22,170 bases of DNA from a virus (Duplodnaviria; Heunggongvirae; Uroviricota; Caudoviricetes): the IMG/VR virus record IMGVR_UViG_2740892282_000009. The stretch is one strand, 5' to 3'. Shown here piece by piece: positions 1 to 22,170 of this stretch. The position numbers and the translations under genes were made by a program. The stretch's first letter is position 1. Each line of letters begins with the position of its first letter. The notes under the pieces are model-generated. The model made no database searches. It worked only from the letters and a program-made list of their open reading frames with translations, and was not told where the DNA came from.

Positions 1-267
1 TGTTCAGCAGATTATCAGGCGCAACTGAAGCGGCATAATCTGCGTGGAAGTATGAGCGCAAAAGGTTGCTGCTACGATAATGCCTGCGTGGAAAGCTTCT
101 TTCATTCGCTGAAAGTGGAATGTATCCATGGAGAACACTTTATCAGCCGGGAAATAATGCGGGCAACGGTGTTTAATTATATCGAATGTGATTACAATCG
201 GTGGCGGCGGCACAGTTGGTGTGGCGGCCTCAGTCCGGAACAATTTGAAAACCAGAACCTCGCTTAG
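1..267 (+). CDS. insF: IS3 transposase OrfB, C-terminal fragment (5' truncated by window edge)
   Basis: Translation [88 protein letters not shown] matches, from memory, the end of E. coli IS3 InsF (integrase-core C-terminus). Stop TAG at 265-267. Confidence 0.8.
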
Positions 268-297
268 GCCTGTGTCCATATTACGTGGGTAGGATCA
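259..297. repeat. IS3 right terminal inverted repeat (about 39 bp)
   Basis: CTCGCTTAGGCCTGTGTCCATATTACGTGGGTAGGATCA ends with the TGATC-type terminus (as reverse complement) typical of IS3 ends. Exact IR length is recalled, not computed. Confidence 0.6.
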
Positions 298-2662: not shown

Positions 2663-3056
2663 TGTGTTTCCTTACTCTATAAAATGTTCCATTCGTTGGT
2701 TTTGGATGAAGTTCAAAGCCATCATGGCTTTCATTCACTCCAAGTACCCGACCTGATACAACCACTGCCATAATTAAAGGGTTATCAGGATCTAGCCATA
2801 TATCACCGTCTATAACGACCTGTACGGGGTTACAGTACTGTTCAACTATCTCCCCTGTATGATTCCATCCTTCAGCCTTTAGACCTGCTATACCTTCCTG
2901 TACGCTTGTATATTCACGATTTGCTAATTGCGTAGTACCATTAATTAAATCGATAATACGTAATACAATAATATTGCAATCGTTATCTCCGAATTGATAC
3001 GGGTTATCAATGGCGTACTGAATGACATTCATAATTTCATTGTGTAGATTTTTCAT
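2655..3056 (-). CDS. Tail-tip associated protein (133 aa); possible gpK-like/NlpC-P60-like peptidase, speculative
   Basis: Sits immediately upstream of the J-like gene and overlaps its start by 8 nt. Contains a Cys (GDNDCNIIV) and downstream His residues; the call rests mainly on position. Confidence 0.35.
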   Translation of the reverse strand: MKNLHNEIMNVIQYAIDNPYQFGDNDCNIIVLRIIDLINGTTQLANREYTSVQEGIAGLKAEGWNHTGEIVEQYCNPVQVVIDGDIWLDPDNPLIMAVVVSGRVLGVNESHDGFELHPKPTNGTFYRVRKHNG

Positions 3057-3679
3057 TATTTGTACTTCCAGTTTTGATTTTGATTAACTTGCCCTAACAG
3101 ACTAAAGTACTCATCACCTTTGTAGTAAGATTGATATACTGAGTTAGCAGCAATTAAGGTCGGCTGTCGGTCTAGCTTTTTATATACACTGTTAACGTAT
3201 ATCGTCATTTCGTTAGTTTTTTGATTTGGGTCTGCTACTGCCTGTACGTAATCAATGAATCCTGAAAACATAAGCATTGAATCGATTACAGTACTGTCAT
3301 ATGGATTCAAGATTACTAATTTGATATTCATCTGAGCATCTTTAAGAAATCCACCTAATGCAAGTGCACGTACTGATTGATTCACATTACTGACTTTGAA
3401 GTTGATAGCATCATTCGTGATGCCCTTTTGTTCTGAATAGGAAGGAAGTGAACCACTGATAATATCGGGGAAACTAATATATTGATAACCATCTAAATTG
3501 ATATCTATAAGTGAGTCTGTCCAGTGAAAACCATTTGTGCCTTTTGGAAGTACATCAAAACAAGTTACCTGTACACCCAAGCTCATTACATCCATTAGTG
3601 TTAATCGTGTTTTCGTCGTACCTTTAACTAACTTCCAGTACTTCAATAGATTGGCATTAGTAAAAACTGCATCATTCAT
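3056..3679 (-). CDS. Tail-tip / baseplate-hub-like structural protein (207 aa)
   Basis: Translationally coupled within the tail-tip gene string; no recognisable motif; assigned by synteny. Confidence 0.35.
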   Translation of the reverse strand: MNDAVFTNANLLKYWKLVKGTTKTRLTLMDVMSLGVQVTCFDVLPKGTNGFHWTDSLIDINLDGYQYISFPDIISGSLPSYSEQKGITNDAINFKVSNVNQSVRALALGGFLKDAQMNIKLVILNPYDSTVIDSMLMFSGFIDYVQAVADPNQKTNEMTIYVNSVYKKLDRQPTLIAANSVYQSYYKGDEYFSLLGQVNQNQNWKYK

Positions 3680-4236
3680 TATGTAATATTCTCCGTTGCC
3701 TTAAATGTCATATTCATTATGTTACCGACTGGCAATGTATAGTCATTATCAGGGTCCAGTACTGCTTCGATCATCAGATTGTTATATTTAATAATCTCGC
3801 TTGCCTGTACTGTATTTTGTAAGACAGGAAAAATAGTAATAGAAGTACTGGTACGTTCTACAATGCGATATATTTTATTGTGGTTAGTAAATTGAATCCA
3901 TTCACCTATCGCTAGAGAATTAGTACTGGTGTTGATTACCCTATTGCCTTTGTTAACAAGTGCAGTACTGGTTAACGATCCCGTTTGTGTGCCTCTGTAG
4001 GTACTCAACAATCCAAGAGAAAAAGTAAAGGGCTTACCCTGTGAGTACTGAGCAAGGAAGTTTTGAACCTCTCCAATACTGGCAGTATTGAAACTTAACT
4101 GAAACTGAATCTCATAGTATTGAATACCTGTACTTCTCATGATACGTTGCCCTGTCCATGTCTGATTTGAATAGACAGGTTCAGTACTTTTAATCTGGAA
4201 GTTTGTTATTTTTATTTGATTTGAAAAAGATGCCAT
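3679..4236 (-). CDS. Distal tail / tail-tip structural protein (185 aa)
   Basis: First gene of the tail-tip string; ATG at 4236 preceded by GAGGT; beta-rich composition; assigned by synteny. Confidence 0.35.
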   Translation of the reverse strand: MASFSNQIKITNFQIKSTEPVYSNQTWTGQRIMRSTGIQYYEIQFQLSFNTASIGEVQNFLAQYSQGKPFTFSLGLLSTYRGTQTGSLTSTALVNKGNRVINTSTNSLAIGEWIQFTNHNKIYRIVERTSTSITIFPVLQNTVQASEIIKYNNLMIEAVLDPDNDYTLPVGNIMNMTFKATENIT

Positions 4237-4271
4237 TGTAACCTCAACAATCCTTGTTTCGAGTATTTATT

Positions 4272-4892
4272 ATGATTGACTTCTTAAACCACATATTGCC
4301 TATATTATCTGCTATTGCATTCCCTATAGTTGTTGTAGTAGTAACTCTTTATATAGTCTACAGAAGCGGAAGTACATCCATCATTGCTAATAAGATATGG
4401 GGGATATTCATTGGTGAGAAAAATTTCTTCAATGAAGAATTAGCATTAAAAGAAAAGGTTGAACATGATGTTGCTAAATTCAACTTTAAAGTAAATCTGA
4501 AAACCAGGAATCTCACTCAAATTGAACAATTTTATAAATTTCTGGAAAAATTCGATCTGGATATAGATAACTTCAAAGGACTTCGTGACTGCTACTTGCC
4601 CTCATTGCAGAAGGTCAAAAAAACATCTAAAAGTGAAATGTTTAATATTGGCCTGGTTGTCTTGTTAATAGGCGGTTTTTTGTTACCTATCTTCATTGGC
4701 GTGTTTATATTTAGAGACATTTCTACTTTCGACGGGGGGAAATTAGCAAATCTATTCTTTTATACGTTTTTAATTTCTGCCAGTACAGTTTTAAGTTTTA
4801 GTCAGTTACTTAGAAAGATTAAGTCAATCAGAACCCGTAAATTGATCTATAAAAAGAAATGCGAATATCTTGCAAACAGAAAGCCCATGTAG
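4272..4892 (+). CDS. Integral membrane protein (about 206 aa), opposite-strand moron inside the tail module
   Basis: The ORF track gives 4254-4892 with a TTG start; the first ATG is at 4272. Hydrophobic N-terminal helix (ILPILSAIAFPIVVVVVTLYIVY) and a second hydrophobic pair (IGLVVLLIGGFLLPIFIGVFIF). Very AT-rich, without the GTAC excess of the neighbours. Confidence 0.55.
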   Translation: MIDFLNHILPILSAIAFPIVVVVVTLYIVYRSGSTSIIANKIWGIFIGEKNFFNEELALKEKVEHDVAKFNFKVNLKTRNLTQIEQFYKFLEKFDLDIDNFKGLRDCYLPSLQKVKKTSKSEMFNIGLVVLLIGGFLLPIFIGVFIFRDISTFDGGKLANLFFYTFLISASTVLSFSQLLRKIKSIRTRKLIYKKKCEYLANRKPM

Positions 4893-4900
4893 GGCTTTCT
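4878..4900. terminator. Hairpin between convergent genes (candidate bidirectional terminator)
   Basis: AGAAAGCCC-atgta-GGGCTTTCT: perfect 9-bp stem with 5-nt loop, overlapping the stop codons of the plus-strand moron (4890-4892) and the minus-strand gene (4900-4902). Confidence 0.5.
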
Positions 4901-6003
4901 TAAGAATTACGTCTCTGGCTGCTTCTTACTGCCTGTGTCACACTGTTGGCGTGCTTCTTCAACATTTCATTGAATTTCTTATCATCACCTGCAACGTCAC
5001 CCTGAATGATTAAGGGAGCGTTAACGGTGATGTCACCAGCAGTACTACCGCCTTTGTCCTGAGTATCGAGGAATTTAGTAAGTTTCTTGTTGGCTTCTGG
5101 CTGTACGACACGCTCACCGGCTTTCAGTACGAATGATTTATTATCATAACTAGATGGTAATTCATCTACGCCGCCGTGGAACTGCCCCGCATCAGCACCT
5201 TTTGCAGTACTGATAATGCTCAATCCAAGAGAGGCTACCTGTGCATAGTTCGCAAGGTTTTGAGGCCACGGCGTAGCAAGTGCCTGTGCAAGTGCGGATT
5301 GAATGCTTAGTACTGTCTGAGCTATCGTGATCCCACGTGAAACCATGAATGCCGCTTCGGCTGCACCAGACGATTCCCCAAATGCGGCCACCATCGCCCC
5401 ACTAAGGTTTTGTGCAGTATCTGAGAAGATTGTGAGTTGTTGCTGTGCATTCTGGTTACTGATATCAATGGCCTGAGCATTGTACTTTGCTGTTATACCA
5501 GTAGTGTTAGCACCTACGCCGTAATCCCCCTGATAGACAGGAAGAGGTGCAGCCATTGTCATTACACGGGCAACTACATCAGCAGGTGTAAATGAATAGG
5601 ATTTAGTAACTACCTGATCCTTATCCCCGGATAATTGAGTACCCGTAACGTAACCATTGACGATGGCATAAGTGATCTGACTTTCTTCTAAATCTAATTG
5701 ATACTGAATAATGACCTGAAATACAGTTTGTGATTCAGCTATTTCATCTAAGAATTGGTGCGTAGGATCATCAGGTAAGTATGCAACCACAATATCAAAT
5801 GGTTCTACTGATTTATCGGATAGTAGTACTGTCTTGTACTCATTATCATAGGTTTCAAAATTATTTGTTTCTGACTGGATGGTTAGAGCAGGAAATTCAG
5901 TTACATTATTAATAGTAACATTGCCTATGCCCTGTGGTGAACGGTTTCCAGTGTCCGTATTATATTGTAAAGTTAATCCCTTACCTGAAAAAATGTCGGC
6001 CAT
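4900..6003 (-). CDS. Tail protein with tape-measure-like Ala/Gly/Gln-rich central region (367 aa)
   Basis: Lies between the small head-tail genes and the tail-tip genes. Central low-complexity helical segment (AQQQLTIFSDTAQNLSGAMVAAFGESSGAAEAAF...) as seen in tape-measure or ejection proteins. The N-terminal 150 aa could be a tube-like domain. Confidence 0.35.
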   Translation of the reverse strand: MADIFSGKGLTLQYNTDTGNRSPQGIGNVTINNVTEFPALTIQSETNNFETYDNEYKTVLLSDKSVEPFDIVVAYLPDDPTHQFLDEIAESQTVFQVIIQYQLDLEESQITYAIVNGYVTGTQLSGDKDQVVTKSYSFTPADVVARVMTMAAPLPVYQGDYGVGANTTGITAKYNAQAIDISNQNAQQQLTIFSDTAQNLSGAMVAAFGESSGAAEAAFMVSRGITIAQTVLSIQSALAQALATPWPQNLANYAQVASLGLSIISTAKGADAGQFHGGVDELPSSYDNKSFVLKAGERVVQPEANKKLTKFLDTQDKGGSTAGDITVNAPLIIQGDVAGDDKKFNEMLKKHANSVTQAVRSSQRRNS

Positions 6004-6020
6004 TTTATATCCTTATAGCG

Positions 6021-6413
6021 TTATCTTGTTTTCTCCGTAACTTGAATATTTATCGTGAATGATAAAGAAACCGAGCCAGTTATAGGGTCTGTTACGATAT
6101 CGGATTGTTCATATGAGTAAGAGAGAATGATTAAATCAGCATCCTTGAAAGCACGTGCTTTCTCATTATCAAAAGTACTGATAATCTGATCATAAGTAAT
6201 TGATGGTGCAGTGTTGCCTGATTCTGGTTTTGGACTAATCAAGTACTGAATAGCAAAGTTACCTGCTTGTCTCTGCCCTCCAAAAGAAATTGAAGACAAT
6301 GAGTAATCAAATGCTATCTGTTCAAATACATCGGCATCACGTGATATTGTTAGATTCTTAGTTGCGTTGATTAGCTGTTTCATTGTCTGGCGTACTTTCT
6401 GTACTAACATCAT
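6021..6413 (-). CDS. Small virion protein (131 aa), candidate tail tube or head-tail joining protein
   Basis: The ORF track extends to 6491, but the start is probably ATG 6413-6411: it directly follows the upstream stop (TAA 6417-6415) and has GAGGA about 9 nt upstream. Beta-rich; assigned by synteny. Confidence 0.4.
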   Translation of the reverse strand: MMLVQKVRQTMKQLINATKNLTISRDADVFEQIAFDYSLSSISFGGQRQAGNFAIQYLISPKPESGNTAPSITYDQIISTFDNEKARAFKDADLIILSYSYEQSDIVTDPITGSVSLSFTINIQVTEKTR

Positions 6414-6414
6414 A

Positions 6415-6738
6415 TTAGTAGTCCTCTGCAAATGAAGCACCAGCAGAAGTACGAAAGTAGCAATTAACCATACCTGACCGATCATCTTCAATATTATAAA
6501 TTGTTTGGTTTACACCATCGATGATCAGTACTGTACCGATAGCTATATCAGCATTAACTAAATCATCCTTTCTCATTGTTACGTATGTTTCTGTACTTTC
6601 GATAAATCCACCTGCCGCTTCAATAGAAACGGGAAGTACTTCTGCAATTCCAGTAAAAGTACTTCCCGTAGAAGTTTGGATTAATTGACCGAAAGCATTT
6701 AGAAACGTATCTTGTTGACCGTTAGAAAATGCTCTCAT
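6415..6738 (-). CDS. Small virion protein (107 aa), candidate head-tail connector/adaptor
   Basis: Immediately downstream of the capsid ORF and tightly packed with neighbours; assigned by synteny. Confidence 0.35.
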   Translation of the reverse strand: MRAFSNGQQDTFLNAFGQLIQTSTGSTFTGIAEVLPVSIEAAGGFIESTETYVTMRKDDLVNADIAIGTVLIIDGVNQTIYNIEDDRSGMVNCYFRTSAGASFAEDY

Positions 6739-6743
6739 AGTTA

Positions 6744-10565
<3,822 letters not shown>

Positions 10566-10568
10566 TTA

Positions 10569-12942
<2,374 letters not shown>

Positions 12943-12956
12943 TTATTGAGATCACT

Positions 12957-13520
12957 ATGTCAGACCGCAACAATGATTTTTCTTTGCTGGTAAAGTTACT
13001 GAATAGCTTCCTAAAGAATGAAGATATAAAGAGGCGTCTGTATTCCTTCGTCAGTAATGAAACTAATGATTGGGAAAAATGGCTACAAATTGAATTTGAG
13101 CACTTCCTTAACAAAAAAAGAAAATATGAAGTTAAACGTGAAGTTACAGCTTTTCTTGACCCTAATAATTTCCCTGCAAGCAAGCTCTCAAAAATCGATA
13201 TAATAATGAGAGAAAAAGATACCCTTTTTGAAGACTATATCTTTATTGAGCTGAAATGTACTAAGCGTTCATCTGCCTTAAAAAGAGGATTGCAAGCAGA
13301 CCATTTGAAACTCAACTCTATACAAGAATGTAAGTATCCGATGCGAAATTCTTTCTGTGTTGGTTTTCATTTATATTGCTCATCATCTGTAGTTGAAGAA
13401 ATGGACAAGTATGTAACCGATACCCTTAAAGGATCTCATGCAGTATTCAAATTATGCGAATGTCCGACAAACCGTCATTGCGATTGTGCGTTAAATGAAA
13501 TAGGTGTTGTACTTTGCTAA
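12957..13520 (+). CDS. Small PD-(D/E)xK-like nuclease-fold protein with Cys-rich C-terminus (187 aa)
   Basis: Motif ...EKWLQIEFEH ... KIDIIMRE ... (16 aa) ... YIFIELKCTKR fits a D ... E-x-K nuclease core. C-terminus CECPTNRHCDC. Divergent from the TerS gene (44-bp gap). AT-rich, low GTAC count. Confidence 0.45.
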   Translation: MSDRNNDFSLLVKLLNSFLKNEDIKRRLYSFVSNETNDWEKWLQIEFEHFLNKKRKYEVKREVTAFLDPNNFPASKLSKIDIIMREKDTLFEDYIFIELKCTKRSSALKRGLQADHLKLNSIQECKYPMRNSFCVGFHLYCSSSVVEEMDKYVTDTLKGSHAVFKLCECPTNRHCDCALNEIGVVLC

Positions 13521-13699
13521 GTGCGGTGCGGGAAGCTATCTAAACTTCACACATAACTTAAAGAATCCGGTGCCGAAAACTCGCGTTCTAAGCTGGGCTG
13601 CCGGAGTACCTTAATTAGTAATTTAACTTAATTAGCTTGCTTAAAAATACTTACATTCTATTTTACATTAGCATTATTACAATGTTATATTAATAGCAC

Positions 13700-14854
13700 A
13701 TGCACATTGTAGCTCATAAAGGAATGACCAAATTGGTAAAGAATGTATATTTCGATGAATCAGGATTCACTGGTAATAACTTACTTTCAAAAGATCAGCC
13801 TTTTTTTAGTTACGCAGCAGTCGTGACTGATGATGAGGAAAGTAAACAGTTTGTTGATTATATAATAAACAAGTACTCGATCGCAGCCGAAGAGCTAAAA
13901 GGTAGCACTCTCGTAAATAGCAAGAGATTTCAACCAGCCGTAGATGAAATACTTAATCATTTCCGTGGTCGTATGCGTGTGGTTGTAAACGAAAAAAAAT
14001 ATGCCCTCTCAGGAAAATTCTTCGAATATATTTTTGAGCCAGTATTAGCAGCTAAAAGCTCAATTTTTTACAACCTTAAATTTCACCTATTCATCTCAAA
14101 TATAATGTATTTTTCTTTAATAGCTAAGGATGAATATTCAGAACTATTACATTCGCGATTTGAAGATTTTTCACGAGGTAAAATATTGGTTAATAGTTTT
14201 ATCGAACCAGTTGTTGGTTCTAAAAATTCTGAAATTATGATGGACATTCATGATTTCGCCAAGAATAACATCTCTATAATTGAAGAAGAATATGAAGGCC
14301 TTGAGGGTACTGGGATTGATAAGTGGTTATTAGATTTGACAACGACTTCTCTTTATAATCTCCTGTGCGATATGAGTAGTAAGTTTGGTACATTGAGAGC
14401 TATATGCGACAGCTCAAAACCATTAATTACTCATCAGGACTCATTCAATGAGATGATAGGCAATGATGAGATTGTGTTCGAGACTTTTCATGATAAAAAA
14501 ATCCCGATCACATTTAAGCTATCTGAGCCAATGATTCTTTCTGATTCTAAAGTCACGCATGGTATACAAATTGCGGATGTGGTAGCTGCGGCTAGCATTT
14601 ATGTCCTTAACAAGAAAAAATCGAAAGAAAAATATCATTCTAAATGGCTAAATCATTTTGAAGATGAGATTTTTTATTGGCAGTGCTGTGTTGTTCCCAC
14701 ACCAGAAAACCTTGACCCTAAAAATGTTAACAACCATTTAAATAGATATATTTTGCAAGAAATTGCAGAGCGAAGCAGAAACTCAACTCCTGTTTTAGAT
14801 GATATTGAGAAGGATATAATAAGAATTTCCAGAACATTAGCCATGCTACGTTGA
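13700..14854 (+). CDS. DUF3800-like protein (384-aa ORF; probable start at ATG 13724, 376 aa)
   Basis: N-terminal VYFDESGFTG matches the DESG-type signature I associate with DUF3800 (function unknown). AAAGGA immediately precedes ATG 13724. Followed by a strong hairpin terminator. Confidence 0.5.
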   Translation: MHIVAHKGMTKLVKNVYFDESGFTGNNLLSKDQPFFSYAAVVTDDEESKQFVDYIINKYSIAAEELKGSTLVNSKRFQPAVDEILNHFRGRMRVVVNEKKYALSGKFFEYIFEPVLAAKSSIFYNLKFHLFISNIMYFSLIAKDEYSELLHSRFEDFSRGKILVNSFIEPVVGSKNSEIMMDIHDFAKNNISIIEEEYEGLEGTGIDKWLLDLTTTSLYNLLCDMSSKFGTLRAICDSSKPLITHQDSFNEMIGNDEIVFETFHDKKIPITFKLSEPMILSDSKVTHGIQIADVVAAASIYVLNKKKSKEKYHSKWLNHFEDEIFYWQCCVVPTPENLDPKNVNNHLNRYILQEIAERSRNSTPVLDDIEKDIIRISRTLAMLR

Positions 14855-14864
14855 AATATATATT

Positions 14865-14894
14865 CTCATGCTGTTTTATCAATAACAGCATGAG
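14865..14894. terminator. Rho-independent terminator candidate (perfect 11-bp stem, 8-nt loop)
   Basis: CTCATGCTGTT-ttatcaat-AACAGCATGAG, followed by an A/T-rich tract, 11 bp after the stop at 14852-14854. Confidence 0.55.
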
Positions 14895-14936
14895 GGTATT
14901 ATATATTATTTAATTTTTCATCATGCCACATACACT

Positions 14937-15024
14937 TAATAATTTAATAATTTAATAATTTAATAATTTAATAATTTAATAATTTAATAATTTAATAATT
15001 TAATAATTTAATAATTTAATAATT
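14937..15024. repeat. Perfect tandem repeat (TAATAATT) x 11
   Basis: Eleven identical head-to-tail 8-bp units, 88 bp, no interruptions; sits between convergent gene ends (14854 and 15047). Confidence 0.95.
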
Positions 15025-15046
15025 CTATCTCTTTGATTTTTGTTTA

Positions 15047-15319
15047 TTATCTATATTGATGCATTTTTTTAATTCTTTCCTCTCGTATATGGCATGTAGT
15101 ACTGCCATTGTCCACCTGATAGATCGGATTGTAGGTGCGGCCACAATCACTCTGGAACTGAGGAAGGTAGTACTTCACCCCGTTACGTGTACCTGTATCA
15201 AACAGTACTATTATAGCTTTGTTATCAACGTTACCGACCAAGGCTTTATCCATGAATGAATGATGTACGCTGCCGCAGCCTGTGAGCAGTACTACCAACA
15301 TGACGATTAGTATTTTCAT
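15047..15319 (-). CDS. Lipoprotein (about 90 aa)
   Basis: The ORF track starts at 15355, but the likely start is ATG 15319 (AGGGA 8-9 nt upstream), giving the signal peptide MKILIVMLVVLLTGC with a lipobox (LTGC). Confidence 0.6.
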   Translation of the reverse strand: MKILIVMLVVLLTGCGSVHHSFMDKALVGNVDNKAIIVLFDTGTRNGVKYYLPQFQSDCGRTYNPIYQVDNGSTTCHIREERIKKMHQYR

Positions 15320-15329
15320 TGTTATATCC

Positions 15330-15839
15330 CTATAGAAGTTGTTCGCATTGTTCAAAGCGGATTGGCCTGTACTCTCCCTGTACTGCCCATATGCCCGACT
15401 CTCGTAAAATCCTGTGATTTCGGTTGCTGCTGACTTGTACGATCACCTTGTCGCAGTACTGCATGATGTTCTTAATGAGTACCGGGAAGATCAACCGCTC
15501 TATGTATTCCTCAGTGAACCGTCTATTTAGTCGAACTAAGTCGTAACCGTCCGTTAGCAGCGGTTCAGCAGCCATGTACCGTATGAATGGTAGATCTTCA
15601 TAGCGTGTACCTGTGCCAGTACTGAGCACGCACAACACCCCCTTTTCTTTGAACCATGCGGCTTTGCCCTGAATCATTCTTAACTGGTTCTGATAGACCA
15701 CGTGACGAATGTATTCACTTTCCTTTCCTGCCCCCATCAGTACCCGGCAACCGTTTATCAGTACACGGGTTTCCAGCTCTACGCCGAGTAACATACCGTC
15801 CAAAGACGTAATAGGAACTGCCCAATGTTCGAGTTTCAT
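15330..15839 (-). CDS. Short EAL-domain-like protein (169 aa), probably degenerate or truncated
   Basis: N-terminal WAVPITSLDGMLLGVELETRV resembles the start of EAL domains (YQPI...G.EALLRW); C-terminal CDKVIVQ...AVQGEYRPIRFEQ resembles the VAEGVE...QGY...P end. About 80 aa shorter than a canonical EAL domain. Region is higher in GC. Confidence 0.4.
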   Translation of the reverse strand: MKLEHWAVPITSLDGMLLGVELETRVLINGCRVLMGAGKESEYIRHVVYQNQLRMIQGKAAWFKEKGVLCVLSTGTGTRYEDLPFIRYMAAEPLLTDGYDLVRLNRRFTEEYIERLIFPVLIKNIMQYCDKVIVQVSSNRNHRILRESGIWAVQGEYRPIRFEQCEQLL

Positions 15840-16020
15840 GTTGATCTCTCAGTTGTCATAACTGATTGATAATTGATCTGCCTTGACTATCAGTTAACTC
15901 ATTATCGATCGGTATAGCCTTTCCTACCATTTTTAGTGGTTAGTGATTTTCACGGCTGGATCTGTGCGAAATGTGATGCAACACTGTATAAATAACCAGT
16001 ATTCATGTGGAGGGCATATC

Positions 16021-16332
16021 ATGGGCAAGAATGGTTTTGATCCGGCAATCAAACACGGGGTTCAGCAGTTTGAGCATTTAGGCCAATGGGCTAAGGTCTG
16101 CTATTGGGGATACAGTCTTGATGAGTTTTCATATGGGGATCGTGTTTTCTTCCAGAACCAGCAAGGTACATACTGGTTAGGCACGATTGAGCGTGATTGC
16201 TTCGTGTTCATACTGGAAACGCCGCTAAGTTCAGTACTGGAAGGCTTGCATTATCTGAGTACTGAGAATGCCGTCTATAAGCAGCATGAAGAAGATGGTT
16301 GGTTCTCTGGGCAGGGAGAATTACCGTTTTGA
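16021..16332 (+). CDS. Hypothetical protein (about 103 aa)
   Basis: The ORF track starts at 15943; ATG 16021 is preceded by GGAGGG. No recognisable motif. Confidence 0.35.
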   Translation: MGKNGFDPAIKHGVQQFEHLGQWAKVCYWGYSLDEFSYGDRVFFQNQQGTYWLGTIERDCFVFILETPLSSVLEGLHYLSTENAVYKQHEEDGWFSGQGELPF

Positions 16333-16432
16333 TAGCACTTCCACCAATCGCCCAAACAAACCTACCCAAATGCGAAAGGTGGAAGTACTACAATTATATC
16401 TTTTTGCATCAAAAATATAACCAAAACTTTGT

Positions 16433-17224
16433 TCATTTATCCCAAAGCGTCATAAGTTTACTCTTAATCTCATCCGTTATTGCTGAGTGATTCGACTTAT
16501 AGATGATTTTTAGTGCTTCAACGTTGTCGCCATTCTTGAATACTCTTCGCATTGAAGATGCCTTTGTTCTTGCAGTACTTTCCTTCCATTCTGGATGGTC
16601 AGTTACCATCTTTTCAACAAGATCAGTTGTGTTCATACCACTTTCAACATACTGATAGTACTCAATAAATGTCTGCATTCCTATTGTCTGTAGATCCCGG
16701 ATAGTGTTTGAATCTGGCTTCACCGTGATCTCTTCCTTTGAACGTTCAGTGTCTGGATCAATAAATTCAATGATGTCTGTTACACGTGGATCGTTAAGTA
16801 ATAAATTGCTGATTCTTAAAGTGTAACCATTCTGGTGCTCATTATAAAAACCATATTCCTTCACTAATTCATGTGGTATGGATACAGCATAACGAATTGA
16901 GAAATCATGGTTATATATTACGGCAATGAGCTCATCGAATTGGTTCAGATCATAATTTCTGATAATCCCAAGAATTAATGATTTGTTTTTTAAATTATTC
17001 TTACGAGACTTAATCTGAATTTTTCGATCATCAATCGTTGTAGCGTCATACCCTTTAGTACTAGGTGCAGCCAGTACCATTTGCATCTTATCCGCAACCA
17101 GCCATTCAGTGTACTCACTGATAGGATTGTTTCTGGTTCTGATAACCTCTCGTCGTTCTAACTCATCAAGCGTCAACTGATTCAGTTGCATCAATTCGAC
17201 GTTACTCAATTGTGATAAATCCAT
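16433..17224 (-). CDS. Hypothetical protein (263 aa), translationally coupled partner of the HNH nuclease
   Basis: Its ATG (17224-17222) abuts the stop of the upstream gene (TAA 17227-17225). Possible degenerate nuclease-like segment (GYDATTIDDRKIQIKSRK); otherwise unrecognised. Confidence 0.4.
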   Translation of the reverse strand: MDLSQLSNVELMQLNQLTLDELERREVIRTRNNPISEYTEWLVADKMQMVLAAPSTKGYDATTIDDRKIQIKSRKNNLKNKSLILGIIRNYDLNQFDELIAVIYNHDFSIRYAVSIPHELVKEYGFYNEHQNGYTLRISNLLLNDPRVTDIIEFIDPDTERSKEEITVKPDSNTIRDLQTIGMQTFIEYYQYVESGMNTTDLVEKMVTDHPEWKESTARTKASSMRRVFKNGDNVEALKIIYKSNHSAITDEIKSKLMTLWDK

Positions 17225-17953
17225 TTACTCGCTCCAAAAGGTCATTTTCTCTTTCAAGTCTGCAATTGAAAGTACTTTGCTCCCACGATGTACCATTGCA
17301 TGGCAATTTGGACATAATGGGACCATATCTGTTACGGGGTTGACCACATAGTTTTCCCCAATCGTATGAAGCGGCTTGATGTGATGTACATGAATGAATC
17401 CACGGCCATGTGTACCATAGACCTTCTCAAAATCGAAACCACAGCATTTACAGGTAGTACCGTGATGTTGGATGCAGGCTTGTCTGGCCTTTGGATCGCG
17501 TTCGTAGTAGTTCACTGTTACTTGAGTCTTTGCACCTTCAACAAAACTCTCTCCTGAAGGAATTTCATCAGGGAATGGATTAGGTAAGAAGTCTGCATAC
17601 CAAACAACGCCTTCTTTACGCAGATATCGCTTGTTTAATTTACGCTCAAAATCCTTGATAACTGCAATTTCAGGGTTATCCGGGTGTTCTGCGAAAACCA
17701 TATTGAAGGTGTAAAGTTCGTAGCCTTCATGGACTAACCTGACGTGTTCCAGTGCCTGGGTGTATCCCAGTTGTTTTTTGTTGTTTGAGTTGTACTCCCA
17801 ACGCTCTCGAAGAATGACTGACCGCTCTTGTTCACTCTCAACATCCCATGACCCAAAGATGACCATCTTCTTTTCATGGTTAACAAATGACCAACTCCAC
17901 GTCCAGTTACTGCAAGTAGCTCCGTGCGACTGGATGAATTGCTTCCGGTTCAT
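17225..17953 (-). CDS. McrA-like HNH nuclease with an unassigned N-terminal domain (242 aa)
   Basis: C-terminal HNH signature YERDPKARQACIQHHGTTCKCCGFDF...GFIHVHHIKPL...MVPLCPNCHAMVH, compared with E. coli McrA from memory. The Trp-rich N-terminal 150 aa (SNWTWSWSFVNHEKKMVIFGSWD...) may be a modified-base reader (EVE/SRA-like); this is a guess. Confidence 0.65.
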   Translation of the reverse strand: MNRKQFIQSHGATCSNWTWSWSFVNHEKKMVIFGSWDVESEQERSVILRERWEYNSNNKKQLGYTQALEHVRLVHEGYELYTFNMVFAEHPDNPEIAVIKDFERKLNKRYLRKEGVVWYADFLPNPFPDEIPSGESFVEGAKTQVTVNYYERDPKARQACIQHHGTTCKCCGFDFEKVYGTHGRGFIHVHHIKPLHTIGENYVVNPVTDMVPLCPNCHAMVHRGSKVLSIADLKEKMTFWSE

Positions 17954-18156
17954 TTCTAATCCTTTGTTGTATGATGCTGATATGTAATGTCTTATGTTAT
18001 CGGGATCTCAGGAGAGAGAGCAATTTTTTCATATAATTTGTGATCATTATCAACACCATAATTATAACTAACCTTAAGTTAAATTTAAGTAGCACTGATG
18101 GGTACAGAAAATTAATATTTACGATTCACTTTCCCAAATGTTAACATCCATCATTA
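17954..18156. promoter_or_regulatory. AT-rich divergent intergenic region (likely promoters for the HNH operon and the membrane-protein gene)
   Basis: 203-bp AT-rich spacer between divergently oriented genes; no -10/-35 pair confidently assigned. Confidence 0.3.
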
Positions 18157-18849
18157 TTGGTTGAGTTTCGAGTACTTCATGTGAATATTAAAATAACAAA
18201 TAGAATACTTGCATCCACAGTTATCGTACTTCTATGGGTAGCAATATTGGTGTTGGTTAAAGTACTTTTTCATGGAGGTAGCCAATTGGAATGGGGATCT
18301 ATTAGTGATTGGGTTAGTTCTATCGCCAATCTAATTATGGCAGGGGCAGCCCTATATGCAGCATGGAACGCTAAAAATTGGTTTCAAACTAAAATAAAGG
18401 AAAATGCATTAAATCAAGTTACTAAGTTCTGGACTAATTGCGATCTTTTTTCGTTAGAAATGTTAAAAACATATGAAAATGTACGCAGTCTCAACAATAC
18501 AGATCCTGATTTTGAGCCAAAAGACTTCGCTTACTTAGTGAGGACAGAAAAAGAAGTTATCGATCAACTACAAATAAAGCTAACTTCATTAAAAAATGAG
18601 TTGCAATCGCTTACTTTTTGGAAGGTATCACCAAAGGATGCAACCATTTTTAAAAATTATTTTTTCAGCAATCAAATGGCTCTGAGCACTTTAAAGGAAG
18701 CAATAAATTTTGATATAAATGATATATCTGAGCGATATCATTACAACATGAACTATGGAAAAGTATTAGTTGACACTTTTAAAGGTTTAATTAACACGCA
18801 TGAAACACTTAAAAAGGACATGAATAATCTTTTCCATTTCTCTAATTAG
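18157..18849 (+). CDS. Membrane protein with hydrophobic N-terminal segments and a soluble, coiled-coil-like C-terminal domain
   Basis: The ORF begins with TTG at 18157 and has no ATG before the second hydrophobic segment, so the start is uncertain (GTG 18178 possible). Hydrophobic segments ILASTVIVLLWVAILVLVKVLF and VSSIANLIMAGAALYAAW. AT-rich. Confidence 0.4.
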   Translation: MVEFRVLHVNIKITNRILASTVIVLLWVAILVLVKVLFHGGSQLEWGSISDWVSSIANLIMAGAALYAAWNAKNWFQTKIKENALNQVTKFWTNCDLFSLEMLKTYENVRSLNNTDPDFEPKDFAYLVRTEKEVIDQLQIKLTSLKNELQSLTFWKVSPKDATIFKNYFFSNQMALSTLKEAINFDINDISERYHYNMNYGKVLVDTFKGLINTHETLKKDMNNLFHFSN

Positions 18850-18867
18850 AGTTCACATCGTTCAACA

Positions 18868-18890
18868 AGCGGTGGACAATCTTCACCGCT
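18868..18890. terminator. Hairpin downstream of the membrane-protein gene (terminator candidate)
   Basis: AGCGGTG-gacaatctt-CACCGCT: 7-bp stem with 9-nt loop, followed by an A/T-rich tract. Confidence 0.4.
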
Positions 18891-18989
18891 ATAATTAATA
18901 CTTCAATATACGTATTTACAATGGCTTCATTAAAGTACTCATCTTTTGGTTCTCTTATGGTTATGTATTAAAAGTATCTTATCCCATCA

Positions 18990-19869
18990 CTATTTAACAC
19001 TACCATCATTCATAACCCATTTTTTCTTGCCCGACTGAAAATCCTCGACTATAGCTTTAATTTGTTCTGAAAAATCTATAATGGATGTACTAGCTATAGG
19101 TTCTCGATAAACGTAATCACAATGGTATTCTGTAATTTTAAATCGCACCTTACTATCTAAACCCTCGAGCCAACCATCATTGAATTTTTCAAAATATTCA
19201 CCAGGGCCATATTTCAGTTCTTTACTCAAACTGAAAATCCTGTTTGGTATATCATGTATAGTATATTTCACATTGTTTTGAACATCATTGATGAAGACCT
19301 CATTGTTCATCTTTCCTTTAAATATATTTTGGAAATCATCTTCTTTATAGTCGCTCTGAGAGTTAAACCATGCACCATCAACACGCACATTAAAATTTTT
19401 AATTTCTGGTAATGTCCGTGCAATTATATTCATATGAATTGTTTTTAACAATGGCTCACCATCTTCAGTAATCCAATCGGACTCTTGCTGACCACGTATA
19501 ACAAGCAACTGTATATTGTGCTGTTCAGCTTTTATCTTTGCACCACTCTGATATCCTGTCCGTGTAGCATAAATTAGCTTAAGACCTGGGATGTCTGAAG
19601 TTTTACCAATATATGCATCAATTTTTTTCAATAGATACTGGTGTTGAATAATCTTTACACTCTATCACTGATCTATAGATATTACCCCCTAACTCAAATT
19701 CCCAATAGATATCAAATTCCCTTTCAATACCTGAACGATCTTTAATCTTTTTATTCTTCTCAATGTTAATATTATTGAGGCTTGGTATATTCTCAGCTGC
19801 AATAAGTGACCGCTGGATATCCCGTACTAGTTCTTCATATTCCTTGCCTGAATTGTACATATGAATCAA
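18990..19869 (-). pseudogene. Mrr-like (PD-(D/E)xK, restriction-endonuclease-type) nuclease gene split by a frameshift in a 7-nt homopolymer
   Basis: The upstream ORF (19618-19869) carries EFDIYWEF...VIECKDY; the downstream ORF (18990-19631) continues with KLIYATRTGYQSGA, matching the Mrr catalytic-domain pattern as I recall it. The two frames overlap in the T7 run at 19622-19628 (A7 on the coding strand); the downstream frame has only a TTG start. Removing one nucleotide gives a continuous reading frame of about 295 aa. Confidence 0.55.
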
Positions 19870-20541
19870 TATCTCTAAACAGAATGTATTGCTAATAGTA
19901 CTCCAAATGCCTGTAATTGTTCAAGTATCAGATAAGCAACCTTACAGCTTAGATAGAAAGCTAAGACTGCTTCTGTTGTTCAAATTAATATATCTACTTG
20001 CAAGGAACGATTATGTAAATCGTATGCAACAATCTGGGTTCGGTCGATCCACGGTTCGCGGTTGGGACTGCGTGGGCAACTCACTAATAATTTGATCAAT
20101 TACTTTGCCAGTACTTAGAAAGTAATTATGTGAGGCTTTAACAGCCGAACGCCCCGACAAGGGAGTTTACGACCACGTAGTTACTCACGAATACTTACCA
20201 AATCACTTTGAGTTCTTCTTTTGTCAGTACTGTTACTTGTCTGAGCGAAAGCGAGTAAATCCCTTAGTTCTTTTCGAGTACTAGCGAGAAAAAACGCAAG
20301 GTTCGGTTTAATTTGTTTTTCAGTGACTATACGACCGCAGGGAGTGTAGGCACTCAAAGACCGATTTGGACGTAGTACAAGAGGTCTTAATAATTTCTAA
20401 TTATGGTGTCGAAATTCTGGGCAACCCATATACAGTGTGTTTTAACTCATATTGATACTATATCTAGTGCAAGCAACACTAATCAACCCCATAAAAACCA
20501 CATTTAACCTTAATTACGACATTTGAACCGTTATTAAAACA

Positions 20542-21066
20542 CTACTTAGAATGTCTTAATTCGGGATAAATTGTAGCTATAACCTTTAGTAGGTCTGCCT
20601 TAGTACAGCCACCATCTAAAGCCATACGTAGTTGATATGCTTCTTCACCAGTTAAGTACTGTGCTCCCTCTGGTGTATCACTTCTTACCGGCTTACCACT
20701 ACTTAGAATCGCATTCAGGCCTTCACATATAGCAATCGTGACCATCTTATAATCTCGTACTGAGGAATCGCCGTACTCATTGAGTGTAAAGGCATCAAAG
20801 TACTCGATATTGTTCTTTATCGCTTCATCTGTGATGTATCGAGTCGATGTAACCAGAAGTAGCATATTCTTGTTTGAGAAAGTCTTACGTTTCTTGTTCT
20901 TTTCAAAGTAACTTTTAACAGAGTTTGATATTACTCTACGTGCTTCATCTGTAAGTTGATTGAGATGGCGTACTCCCCTTAGATGATCTTGTAATTCTGC
21001 ATTATCGTGTTTTTTTGGTTTTCGTCCACGTTTCTTTATTTCATGCGGCTCTTTCTTTTTTGTCAT
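20542..21066 (-). CDS. Hypothetical protein with basic N-terminus (174 aa)
   Basis: Lys/Arg-rich N-terminus (MTKKKEPHEIKKRGRKPKK) suggests nucleic-acid binding. Directly downstream of the HNH homing-endonuclease-like gene; backbone composition (GTAC-rich). Confidence 0.4.
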   Translation of the reverse strand: MTKKKEPHEIKKRGRKPKKHDNAELQDHLRGVRHLNQLTDEARRVISNSVKSYFEKNKKRKTFSNKNMLLLVTSTRYITDEAIKNNIEYFDAFTLNEYGDSSVRDYKMVTIAICEGLNAILSSGKPVRSDTPEGAQYLTGEEAYQLRMALDGGCTKADLLKVIATIYPELRHSK

Positions 21067-21131
21067 AATAAATACCCCTATGATAGATGTTAATATTGGC
21101 CTGTAGTATTTCCAGTACTCAGGCCATTTCG

Positions 21132-21632
21132 TTATTTTGATTTTTGTAATAGTACCGCACTAAGTTTTGGAAATGCTTTATACTGCTGCGATATTTTATA
21201 GATATATGATTTACGCCCAACAACATAAGCAGCATGAGCTTCTTCTATCGTTGGGTATGTCCCAAACTTATGTACTTTCTTATCAAATGTTGCTTGTGCT
21301 TGATAGCCCTTATGATTAACGACAACACCGGTTGATAATGATGTTGGTACTTTACGGAACAATTGATTTACTTCTCTCGGTACAAAGATGCAGTTACTTG
21401 GGCTGTACTCATTACCTCCTAATATGTCTTTATCTAAATGCCAACCATCAACAACATTTTCAACATACCAATAATAAAAATCACTAAACCGATACCAGTC
21501 ATCGCAGATGGTAACAGTACTGTAATTGATGTTATTACGTACTCTTGAGTGAAAATTATTCCATACTCGTAGTGCTTGTTTTACATGTGGTAATTCCTGA
21601 CCCTTTAGGTCATTTCTTTTTTCCTTTTTCAT
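21132..21632 (-). CDS. HNH homing-endonuclease-like protein (HNH_3-type motif plus AP2-like DNA-binding region, 166 aa)
   Basis: WHLDKDILGGNEYSPSNCIFVPREVN fits the H-N-N pattern of phage HNH_3 endonucleases; the C-terminal GYQAQATFDKKVHKFGTYPTIEEAHAAY is AP2-like. ATG at 21632 with AAGGA 7 nt upstream. Confidence 0.6.
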   Translation of the reverse strand: MKKEKRNDLKGQELPHVKQALRVWNNFHSRVRNNINYSTVTICDDWYRFSDFYYWYVENVVDGWHLDKDILGGNEYSPSNCIFVPREVNQLFRKVPTSLSTGVVVNHKGYQAQATFDKKVHKFGTYPTIEEAHAAYVVGRKSYIYKISQQYKAFPKLSAVLLQKSK

Positions 21633-21650
21633 ATTTCATCCTTGAAACTA

Positions 21651-21671
21651 AGTACTTCATCCTGAAGTACT
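21651..21671. promoter_or_regulatory. Perfect inverted repeat AGTACTTCA-tcc-TGAAGTACT (operator or hairpin candidate)
   Basis: 9-bp arms with a 3-bp spacer, about 20 bp upstream of the HNH_3 start and 35 bp downstream of the small upstream ORF. The 3-nt loop is tight for an RNA hairpin, which favours a protein-binding site. Confidence 0.4.
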
Positions 21672-21705
21672 GTTAGTACCTTTCTAAAGTGAAAGTACCA
21701 AACCC

Positions 21706-21858
21706 TTACTTACTATCTAAAATCCCATATTGCTGTATCAGATACTGAATGGCTGAACTCATCGTTGTAGCCTTACCACACACTATAAGTGATTTTAGTA
21801 TTTCTTCTTGTGTAGGACTTAATCTCACCCCAACACTAATAGTTTTCTTTTCTTTCAT
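21706..21858 (-). CDS. Small ORF (50 aa), possible ribbon-helix-helix-type DNA-binding protein
   Basis: Not in the supplied ORF track (below its length cutoff). Hand translation: MKEKKTISVGVRLSPTQEEILKSLIVCGKATTMSSAIQYLIQQYGILDSK; AAGGA 6 nt upstream of the ATG. The pattern (basic N-terminus, VRLSPxxEExL..., ...SSAIQYL) resembles small RHH regulators or antitoxins. Confidence 0.35.
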   Translation of the reverse strand: MKEKKTISVGVRLSPTQEEILKSLIVCGKATTMSSAIQYLIQQYGILDSK

Positions 21859-22170
21859 AACATTCCTTTGTTTAACATTTTCCATTTTTTCTCAACGCAA
21901 AAAGATCCCCATGTTGGGGATTACTTTTTGATGTAGAATTATAATTATCACGTTGAGGTAGTGATCACCATAATATGGATTATACCATGTTATTTTTTAT
22001 CGTTCCAAAAACTTGATAACCATTTTATTTATGGTTGGAATTTTCAAAGGTAGTGCTAATACTGTTAGTAACATAAAAAAGATGCACAGTACTATCCAAC
22101 ATGGAAATAGTACGAACATATAGATTGCCGTAGCAATGATTTCAAAGATTATTTTGTATATCCAATTCAT

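Follow-up and report, generated by a model that had tools for sequence, protein, structure and literature searches.

The subject of this study is a 22,170-nucleotide (nt) stretch of tailed-phage DNA (Caudoviricetes; IMG/VR record IMGVR_UViG_2740892282_000009), hereafter the window, and in particular two plus-strand genes near its middle. Gene 1 encodes a 187-amino acid (aa) protein with a PD-(D/E)xK nuclease core, and gene 2 encodes a protein of the DUF3800 family. A preliminary description of this DNA, made from its letters, had presented the two genes as one acquired cassette whose products might form a defence module. We consider it fairly probable that they are two independent single-gene modules flanking a probable cos site, with the DUF3800 gene as defence cargo and gene 1 as an accessory nuclease of the phage lineage.

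Relatives of gene 1 were collected from 48 viral-contig loci and 7 assembly loci (individual loci carry L numbers). In ~45 of these loci gene 1 is divergent from terS, the gene for the small terminase subunit, at a distance of 30–109 base pairs (bp). Gene 1 stands beside terS without DUF3800 in L001-L007 and L080-L123, even where the large and small terminase subunits (TerL and TerS) are only ~44% identical. Apart from a clade of near-identical sequences (≥98% identity to the window), no gene-1 locus contained DUF3800. The two genes occur together in that clade only, which consists of the window, four IMG/VR contigs and E. coli AREA_C483. DUF3800 lies directly beside terS, with gene 1 absent, in E. 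coli G3/10 (L009), L070-L073, L128 (E. coli) and L129 (Erwinia). DUF3800 alone was counted in at least 7 loci of the lineage, in no fewer than five types of related prophage, and in 56 genomic loci; a gene-1 homologue was present in 0/56 of the genomic loci. Taken together with the ~45 loci that have gene 1 only, these counts across genomes and contexts contradict the proposal that the genes recur as a pair.

The junction between the genes tells the same story. At the DNA level the window and the G3/10 prophage are homologous only over 13538-14953 (88.6% identity), a stretch that begins 18 nt past the gene-1 stop codon. Compared with the G3/10-type phages, the DUF3800 protein is 93-94% identical and TerS merely 68-71%. 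The start of homology at 13538 and this contrast in identity indicate that the two genes were joined by recombination between sub-lineages. The divergence of gene 1 broadly tracks that of the terminase: at TerS identities of 68-84% gene 1 has 56-65% identity, and when TerS and TerL are down to ~44% it has 35-38%. Mosaics were seen in L090, L094 and L117, where gene 1 is 39% identical and TerL 89%.

The gap between gene 1 and DUF3800 is 212 nt and includes a 92-nt element (13521-13612). In phages that have gene 1 and lack DUF3800, the element comes just after the gene-1 stop codon, at a distance of ~55 nt. In phages that have DUF3800 and lack gene 1, it lies between terS and DUF3800. Because phages with either gene alone carry the element, it belongs to the phage backbone and is part of neither gene's cassette. 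We conclude that the genes are not a conserved pair and do not make up a two-part system; the cassette of the preliminary description is better read as two single-gene modules that share a neighbourhood in one clade.

Gene 2 matches Pfam DUF3800 (PF12686) with a score of 38 bits against a cut-off of 21, over profile positions 1-145/149, so the family assignment of the preliminary description was correct. DUF3800 is the sole domain found in the protein, and PF12686 is present in all listed gene-2 homologues. The protein has the N-terminal DE and C-terminal QxxD motifs, as these were defined in PMC7736814, and its fold is RNase H-like (type 2) with the carboxylate set D-E...D...QxxD intact. Residues D8, E9, D226, Q279 and D282 are invariant; for D8, E9, Q279 and D282 this was established over 45 homologues at 38-93% identity.

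The start of gene 2 had to be moved. The open reading frame (ORF) ends at 14854 and offers starts at 13700, 13724 and 13733. ATG 13724, the start given previously, is in frame and is not conserved; TTG 13733 is conserved instead. A ribosome-binding site (AGGA, 13720-13723) precedes the TTG, and both are kept in all homologues with ≥76% identity. The conserved start block, AAAGGA-N-AAATTGGTNAAAAATG, includes the TTG. PGAP calls the TTG start in the 99.8% identical copy of AREA_C483, and the phrog_12991 profile aligns from the residue encoded at 13733. Since the PGAP call, the PHROG alignment and the conserved block agree, TTG 13733 is almost certainly the real start.

Standalone DUF3800 proteins of ~375 aa form a subfamily of at least 426 clusters in Proteobacteria, including Enterobacterales, Vibrio, Psychrobacter, Burkholderiales and others. 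A homologue was found in 1/50,697 sequenced phages, a Pseudomonas phage with 40% identity, and the DUF3800 region was found in 2/5426 complete E. coli genomes. Outside phages, the Serratia copy of the gene adjoins icd and an integrase remnant, and the Lonsdalea copy adjoins IS3. The 103 neighbours of 30 distant DUF3800 homologues revealed no recurrent partner, with no family seen more than twice. Most of these neighbours were mobile-element or defence genes, among them Mrr, restriction-modification, PD-Lambda-5 A and B, PDC-M68B, PDC-S15 and HicB. A further homologue (41% identity) was noted in an Alteromonadaceae metagenome-assembled genome (L012; 920-1488, 2586-3680), with a CRISPR array (CRISPR-DR4, 10 repeats) 1.1 kilobases (kb) away.

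The region past gene 1 was sampled by taking the four ORFs downstream of gene 1 in ~40 loci and grouping them into families at 30% identity, which gave 67 families. PADLOC matches in this slot of the relatives were Drt2 (DRT2; E 4e-202), JukA, PDC-M45A/C and PDC-M19A, and Pfam matches were 8xMP, mSLOG, DuOB, DUF4326 and HNH. The window has a methyl-directed type II restriction enzyme-like gene and an adjoining HNH gene further along, at 16433-17224 and 17225-17953, which are probably a further defence unit of the cargo region. With known defence genes in the slot of the relatives and restriction-like genes in the window, DUF3800 is located where this lineage keeps its defence genes. A cargo and defence position had been claimed for both genes; it can be upheld for gene 2, on the basis of location, and falls for gene 1, which is typical of the lineage. 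Neither protein matched any PADLOC-DB v2 family at E values up to 1, consistent with the earlier impression that no named system is present.

Gene 1 was modelled with AlphaFold at pLDDT 89.8. The model has the alpha-beta-beta-beta-alpha-beta topology of the PD-(D/E)xK core fold, and E46, D81, E98 and K100 are placed on helix 1, strand 2 and strand 3 as the catalytic set of this fold requires. The segments KIDIIMRE, YIFIELK and CECPTNRHCDC, pointed out in the preliminary description, were each confirmed. Among 8 close homologues there is no variation at D81, E98, K100 or C167/C169/C175/C177, and E40, W42, E46, D81, E98, K100 and D115 are invariant across 61 relatives with 18-64% identity. The invariance over these 61 relatives shows that the active site is under selection. 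The nuclease core proposed for gene 1 is thus confirmed by a confident fold and an invariant E46/D81/E98/K100 set. The Cys cluster (C-terminal CxCx5CxC) is a feature of the close subgroup only and is not kept across the 61 relatives.

An exhaustive profile search gave a gene-1 family of 193 clusters at 50% identity, nearly all 175-200 aa long. Gene 1 had no match in Pfam, PHROGs, PADLOC or NCBIfam. Nothing matched when the 61 relatives were scanned with Pfam or when a profile made from their alignment was searched against PDB, and no homologue was found in isolated phages. Gene 1 has the PD-(D/E)xK fold and motifs and fits no described family. From the intact-looking virion modules of L128 and L129, which lack it, gene 1 appears to be a dispensable accessory gene.

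Base composition had been used to suggest that both genes were acquired horizontally. The two-gene interval does have a lower GC content (0.343) than the virion module (0.391) or the right flank (0.370), and it does lack the GTAC excess, with 6 GTAC in 1938 bp (3.1/kb; 6.1 expected) compared with 141 in the 12.9 kb of the virion module (10.9/kb; 45 expected). However, the low GC and low GTAC of gene 1 are common to all ~45 lineage relatives, and they are therefore no evidence for recent acquisition of gene 1. The GTAC deficit was accordingly discarded as proof of a foreign origin of this gene, and we regard gene 1 as typical of the lineage rather than as recently acquired cargo. GTAC is ~3-fold over-represented throughout the lineage, as noted for 1-12912 and 14895-22170 of the window, and stands at 7-13/kb in the virion modules of relatives (L080-L123). 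Most of the excess comes from an extreme preference for the valine codon GTA (161/296 Val codons) in the codon phases GTA|C and xGT|ACx. GCGC (2 vs 14.9 expected) and CTAG (9 vs 31 expected) are strongly depleted tetramers.

The 92-nt element between the genes has two parts. Positions 13572-13612 are cosN-like on the minus strand, with AGGTACTCC, 17 variable nt and CGCGAGTTTTCGGC; on the terS strand the lineage form is AGGTWCTCC, 17-20 variable nt and GCGAGTTTTCGSC. Positions 13521-13571 are cosB-like, with inverted-repeat arms around an A/T-rich TGTGTGAA core. Elsewhere the element was located at ~2037-2122 in L007, ~6528-6614 in L094, ~6566-6651 in L100 and ~10000-10076 in L009. The lambda arrangement of AGGTTACG, cohesive end and CGCGGGTTTTCGC resembles the AGGTACTCC ... 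CGCGAGTTTTCGGC arrangement seen here. With respect to terS the element is upstream and on the same strand, as lambda cosN and cosB lie upstream of Nu1; the inverted repeat around its A/T-rich core recalls the layout of R-site, IHF-site and R-site; and the large terminase is GpA-type and the portal of the lambda family. It differs from lambda cos in that the central segment is 17-20 nt and variable among relatives (a fixed 12 nt in lambda) and in that an antisense gene 1 separates it from terS in most relatives. A lambda 13-mer, allowing ≤2 mismatches, had a single match in the window, on the correct strand, with 0.16 expected by chance (16% of shuffles), which by itself is no more than suggestive. 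Given the GpA terminase, the position and the conservation, 13521-13612 is probably a cos site. A structured RNA was also considered, as the arms are G-U-compatible in one relative; the position, the orientation and the lambda-like flanks favour a DNA site. If the cos reading is right, gene 1 and DUF3800 lie at opposite ends of the packaged chromosome.

The arrangement that we favour can be put as follows. The DUF3800 gene occupies a variable slot on the far side of the probable cos, with its own promoter-like site, a weak conserved TTG start and its own terminator, and moves among phages and other mobile elements as a single gene. It may be transcribed in the lysogen from the sigma-70-like site at 13662-13691. 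Its product would act alone as a metal-dependent anti-phage nuclease, probably of the abortive-infection type, whose targets would be RNA:DNA hybrids or similar intermediates formed when an incoming phage replicates or is transcribed. The helical insertion (~130 aa), together with the helical domain at the C-terminus, could act as a sensor or autoinhibitor, and the insertion may also gate the nuclease. Gene 1, between cos and terS and divergent from terS, would encode a restriction-like endonuclease that is active on DNA and takes part in conflict between phages or between phage and host, through exclusion or counter-defence, and not in packaging. A conflict enzyme is suggested because transcription of gene 1 leads away from the late operon, its evolution is faster than that of the terminase, some complete-looking relatives lack it and its composition is moron-like. 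The two genes would have become neighbours when two sub-lineages recombined at the junction of gene 1 and cos. The fuller proposal, in which the standalone ~375-aa DUF3800 protein is an unrecognised single-gene anti-phage system and gene 1 founds a cos-adjacent PD-(D/E)xK family for phage-phage conflict, is offered tentatively and is, as a whole, somewhat doubtful.

Several other explanations were weighed. The most serious concerns gene 1, which may be an enzyme of the phage cycle that assists the terminase at cos, processes DNA ends or degrades host DNA during lytic growth. Strict synteny with terS and the putative cos, maintained even where TerL is ~44% identical, and the invariant active site count in favour of this. 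A precedent exists in HK97-like phages, whose cos cleavage requires an HNH endonuclease from a gene next to those for the terminase. Nevertheless, the GpA terminase has its own nuclease domain, and gene 1 is transcribed away from the late operon and has its moron-like composition in all relatives. It also evolves much faster than TerL, as the mosaic loci illustrate, and L128 and L129 lack it despite complete-looking TerL, portal and capsid genes. We regard a phage-cycle role as unlikely, though not lightly dismissed. It is improbable that DUF3800 serves the nucleic-acid metabolism of the phage itself, for instance by taking off replication primers in the manner of an RNase H. The RNase HII/HIII-like fold with its catalytic carboxylates would suit that role, and the family is a PHROG (phrog_12991). 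Most members of the lineage nevertheless do without DUF3800, its slot is common to known defence genes, it occurs outside phages by insertion sequence (IS) elements or integrase remnants and in defence-rich neighbourhoods, and the sequenced phages yielded only the single homologue mentioned above.

The two remaining explanations give DUF3800 a partner. One pairs it with a structured noncoding RNA (ncRNA) from the 212-nt upstream gap or the downstream repeat, which we think very improbable. Eleven RNA motifs are associated with DUF3800 genes, with UAA common among them (PMC5737381); the upstream gap is long and partly conserved, and the downstream TTAATAAT array is UAA-rich. No such Rfam family was found in the window (at gathering score or at E values up to 10) or in 14 homologous loci, and near-identical prophages have anything from 1 to 11 copies of the TTAATAAT repeat. 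The upstream gap was rejected as a DUF3800-linked ncRNA: its conserved core occurs also in phages without DUF3800, and in the Serratia and Lonsdalea copies the remainder is unconserved save the ribosome-binding site. The other is the cassette itself, gene 1 and DUF3800 as one acquired two-component anti-phage system. The genes are adjacent, close and on the same strand, both proteins have nuclease folds, both genes have low GC and low GTAC, and the window, four IMG/VR contigs and AREA_C483 each carry the two. All of this co-occurrence falls within a single clade of ≥98% identity and the distributions are separate elsewhere, the gap holds a backbone element of phages that have just one of the genes along with the homology breakpoint at 13538, and DUF3800 has a promoter-like site and a ribosome-binding site of its own. 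We give this explanation very little credence.

A number of points weigh against our preferred reading of two separate modules, one of them defensive. In the clade with both genes, functional cooperation is formally conceivable. The role of gene 1 is the weakest step, since a gene so strictly placed by terS and cos might just as well work in packaging or in the lytic cycle. The prophages lacking gene 1 were all found via the DUF3800 search, and the term dispensable does not derive from a viable phage. The cos assignment draws on conservation, position and a short lambda-like match that has the chance expectation of 0.16 per window. For DUF3800, the defence role is suggested by location and family associations and PADLOC has no model for it; the RNA:DNA-hybrid substrate is proposed from fold similarity at 11-14% identity; and in the literature searched no function or phage protection is reported for a standalone DUF3800 protein.

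DUF3800 proteins have been placed in several known systems. They were described as an RNase H2-like nuclease, the effector of retron type VII (PMC7736814), and are attached to Cas12a2/V-A2 and VI-F loci as a TPR-DUF3800 accessory (PMC10910872, PMC12669027). Weinberg et al. named the eleven associated RNA motifs DUF3800-I to DUF3800-XI (PMC5737381). The gene-2 protein shares with the retron type VII, Cas12a2/V-A2 and VI-F proteins the Pfam family, the N-terminal DE, the C-terminal QxxD and the RNase H2-like predicted fold. Unlike retron type VII, there is no RVT_1 in the flanking ORFs of the window and no retron-type RNA in the Rfam scan. Unlike the Cas12a2/V-A2 and VI-F loci, the window has no TPR fusion, cas gene or CRISPR repeat family. 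Further differences from the retron- and Cas-linked forms are that the protein is standalone (~375 aa), that it has a large insertion of helices as well as a helical domain at the C-terminus, and that a prophage carries it as single-gene cargo. None of the Rfam motifs DUF3800-I to -XI, drum or skipping-rope reached the gathering score in the window. A search of 12800-15400 at E values up to 10 returned nothing relevant, and the 14 homologous loci had no match at gathering score.

Prophage defence hotspots are variable cargo slots flanked by conserved phage genes, as in P2/P4-like elements. The region studied here resembles them in its conserved flanks (terS, gene 1 and the cos-like element) and its highly variable occupants, including Drt2, JukA, PDC-M45 and methyl-directed restriction enzymes. 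It differs in that the lineage has a lambda-like GpA terminase, a protease-capsid fusion and a serine recombinase, and in that the slot abuts the putative cos. Gene 1 resembles type II and type IV restriction enzymes of the PD-(D/E)xK superfamily (R.SwaI, BglI, BstYI, BglII, BamHI, Mrr-like) in its E...D...ExK pattern, and its size suits a homodimer. Identity to these enzymes is only 7-14%, and there is no sequence-level family match. Gene 1 also differs from them in being fixed beside terS and cos and not within a restriction-modification operon. No methyltransferase was found beside gene 1 among the window neighbours or the 67 downstream families of the relatives, and the sole methyltransferase of the AREA_C483 prophage is ~9 kb off, at the far end.

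If it is correct, this interpretation leaves DUF3800 alone as a compact and widespread candidate for single-gene defence, which makes for a simpler experimental design. Activity, once shown, would supply a function for a long-standing DUF that also occurs in retron type VII and Cas12a2 loci. A cargo hotspot by the putative cos is now delimited in a lambda-like enterobacterial prophage lineage and can be mined for further defence genes (67 families, ~40 loci). An unannotated family of small nucleases in a fixed position by the packaging genes is a new annotation target. Current ideas are not overturned, as prophage defence hotspots and RNase H-like and PD-(D/E)xK effectors are already known kinds.

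Table 1. Features of the window around gene 1 and the DUF3800 gene.
Feature	Coordinates	Strand	Remarks
terS, small terminase subunit, 182 aa	12364..12912	-	first gene of minus-strand virion module
Divergent intergenic region, 44 bp	12913..12956		T-tract-rich; between terS start (12912) and gene-1 ATG
Gene 1, standalone PD-(D/E)xK nuclease, 187 aa	12957..13520	+	unannotated family; assigned by fold and invariant residues
Backbone element, putative cos, 92 nt	13521..13612	-	found in 30 distinct lineage sequences
Sigma-70-like promoter candidate for DUF3800	13662..13691	+	TTTACA, 18 nt, TG-TATATT
Gene 2, standalone DUF3800, 373 aa	13733..14854	+	RNase HII/HIII-like core, large helical insertion, C-terminal helical domain; TTG start
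Intrinsic-terminator hairpin closing DUF3800 gene	14865..14894		perfect 11-bp stem, 8-nt loop, T-rich tail; detected on both strands
(TTAATAAT)x11 perfect tandem array	14936..15024		TRF: period 8, 11.1 copies, 100% match
Methyl-directed type II restriction enzyme-like gene	16433-17224	-	DUF6998; PADLOC mREase_II, E 1e-62
HNH protein, mREase_IV-like	17225-17953	-	similarity, E 4e-8

The promoter candidate is the best plus-strand match in the region (10/12 plus an extended -10), with the total of promoter-like sites not above chance. Both of its hexamers are kept in the G3/10, L071 and L072 copies. The perfect terminator stem reported at the end of the cassette was found as described. The terminator scan gave 3 terminator-like sites in the region vs 0.9 expected, and in G3/10, L071 and L073 the stem of this hairpin is kept and the loop sequence changed. 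The (TTAATAAT)x11 array sits where DUF3800 and the next gene converge, in the space separating their 3' ends. Its copy number is 11, 10, 8, 7, 2 or 1 in prophages of at least 98% identity and 1 in the G3/10-type copies; we take it to be a slippage-prone repeat with no obvious function. The 169-aa gene past DUF3800 (15330-15839, minus strand) weakly resembles the C-terminal part of a c-di-GMP phosphodiesterase (E 1e-5, far under the cut-off), and at the same position the Erwinia relative L129 (6239-6916) encodes a full EAL-domain protein.

Both genes run opposite to the minus-strand virion module, as had been noted, and the spacing of 44 bp between the terS start and gene 1 was exact. The virion module comprises the large terminase, a lambda-family portal, a protease-capsid fusion and tail genes. 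TerL has the domains GpA_ATPase and GpA_nuclease. TerS has weak similarity to Phage_Nu1 (E 2e-4, under the Pfam cut-off), and PGAP labels the AREA_C483 copy (99.8% identical) as terminase small subunit. The longest ORFs of terL (10569-12458) and terS (12364-12912) overlap by 95 nt, and the true terL start is probably further downstream than the longest-ORF start.

The divergent intergenic region contains the short tandem repeats ATCCTTTTT x2.2 and TTTTTA x3.5. Among 34 distinct relatives the gap between terS and gene 1 is 30-109 bp, with a TATTTAT core in all 34. Distant relatives with gaps of 67-109 bp have a longer motif in common, TTAAAGTATTTAT-N6-7-TTGCCGATAA; this motif and TATTTAT are probably divergent promoter or regulator sites. 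Promoter-like matches were obtained on both strands of 12913-12956, in a number at chance level for such AT-rich DNA, and the region probably carries back-to-back promoters for terS and gene 1. In the window the promoter-like -35 hexamer of terS would overlap the first gene-1 codons. In relatives without gene 1 (L009 ~9950-9990; L070-L072 ~5755-5795) the stretch from the cos-like element to terS includes a strong hairpin, AGTCCTCCTGA...TCAGGAGGACT, with a run of T after it on the terS strand. Such a terminator-like hairpin ahead of the late operon hints at antitermination control.

An isolate of this prophage lineage was not found in the sequenced phage collection. In E. coli AREA_C483 (L008) the same prophage lies between mipA and yeaG and is interrupted by IS3, IS5, ISSen4 and a group II intron. 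The end of this prophage is marked by a large serine recombinase adjoining yeaG.

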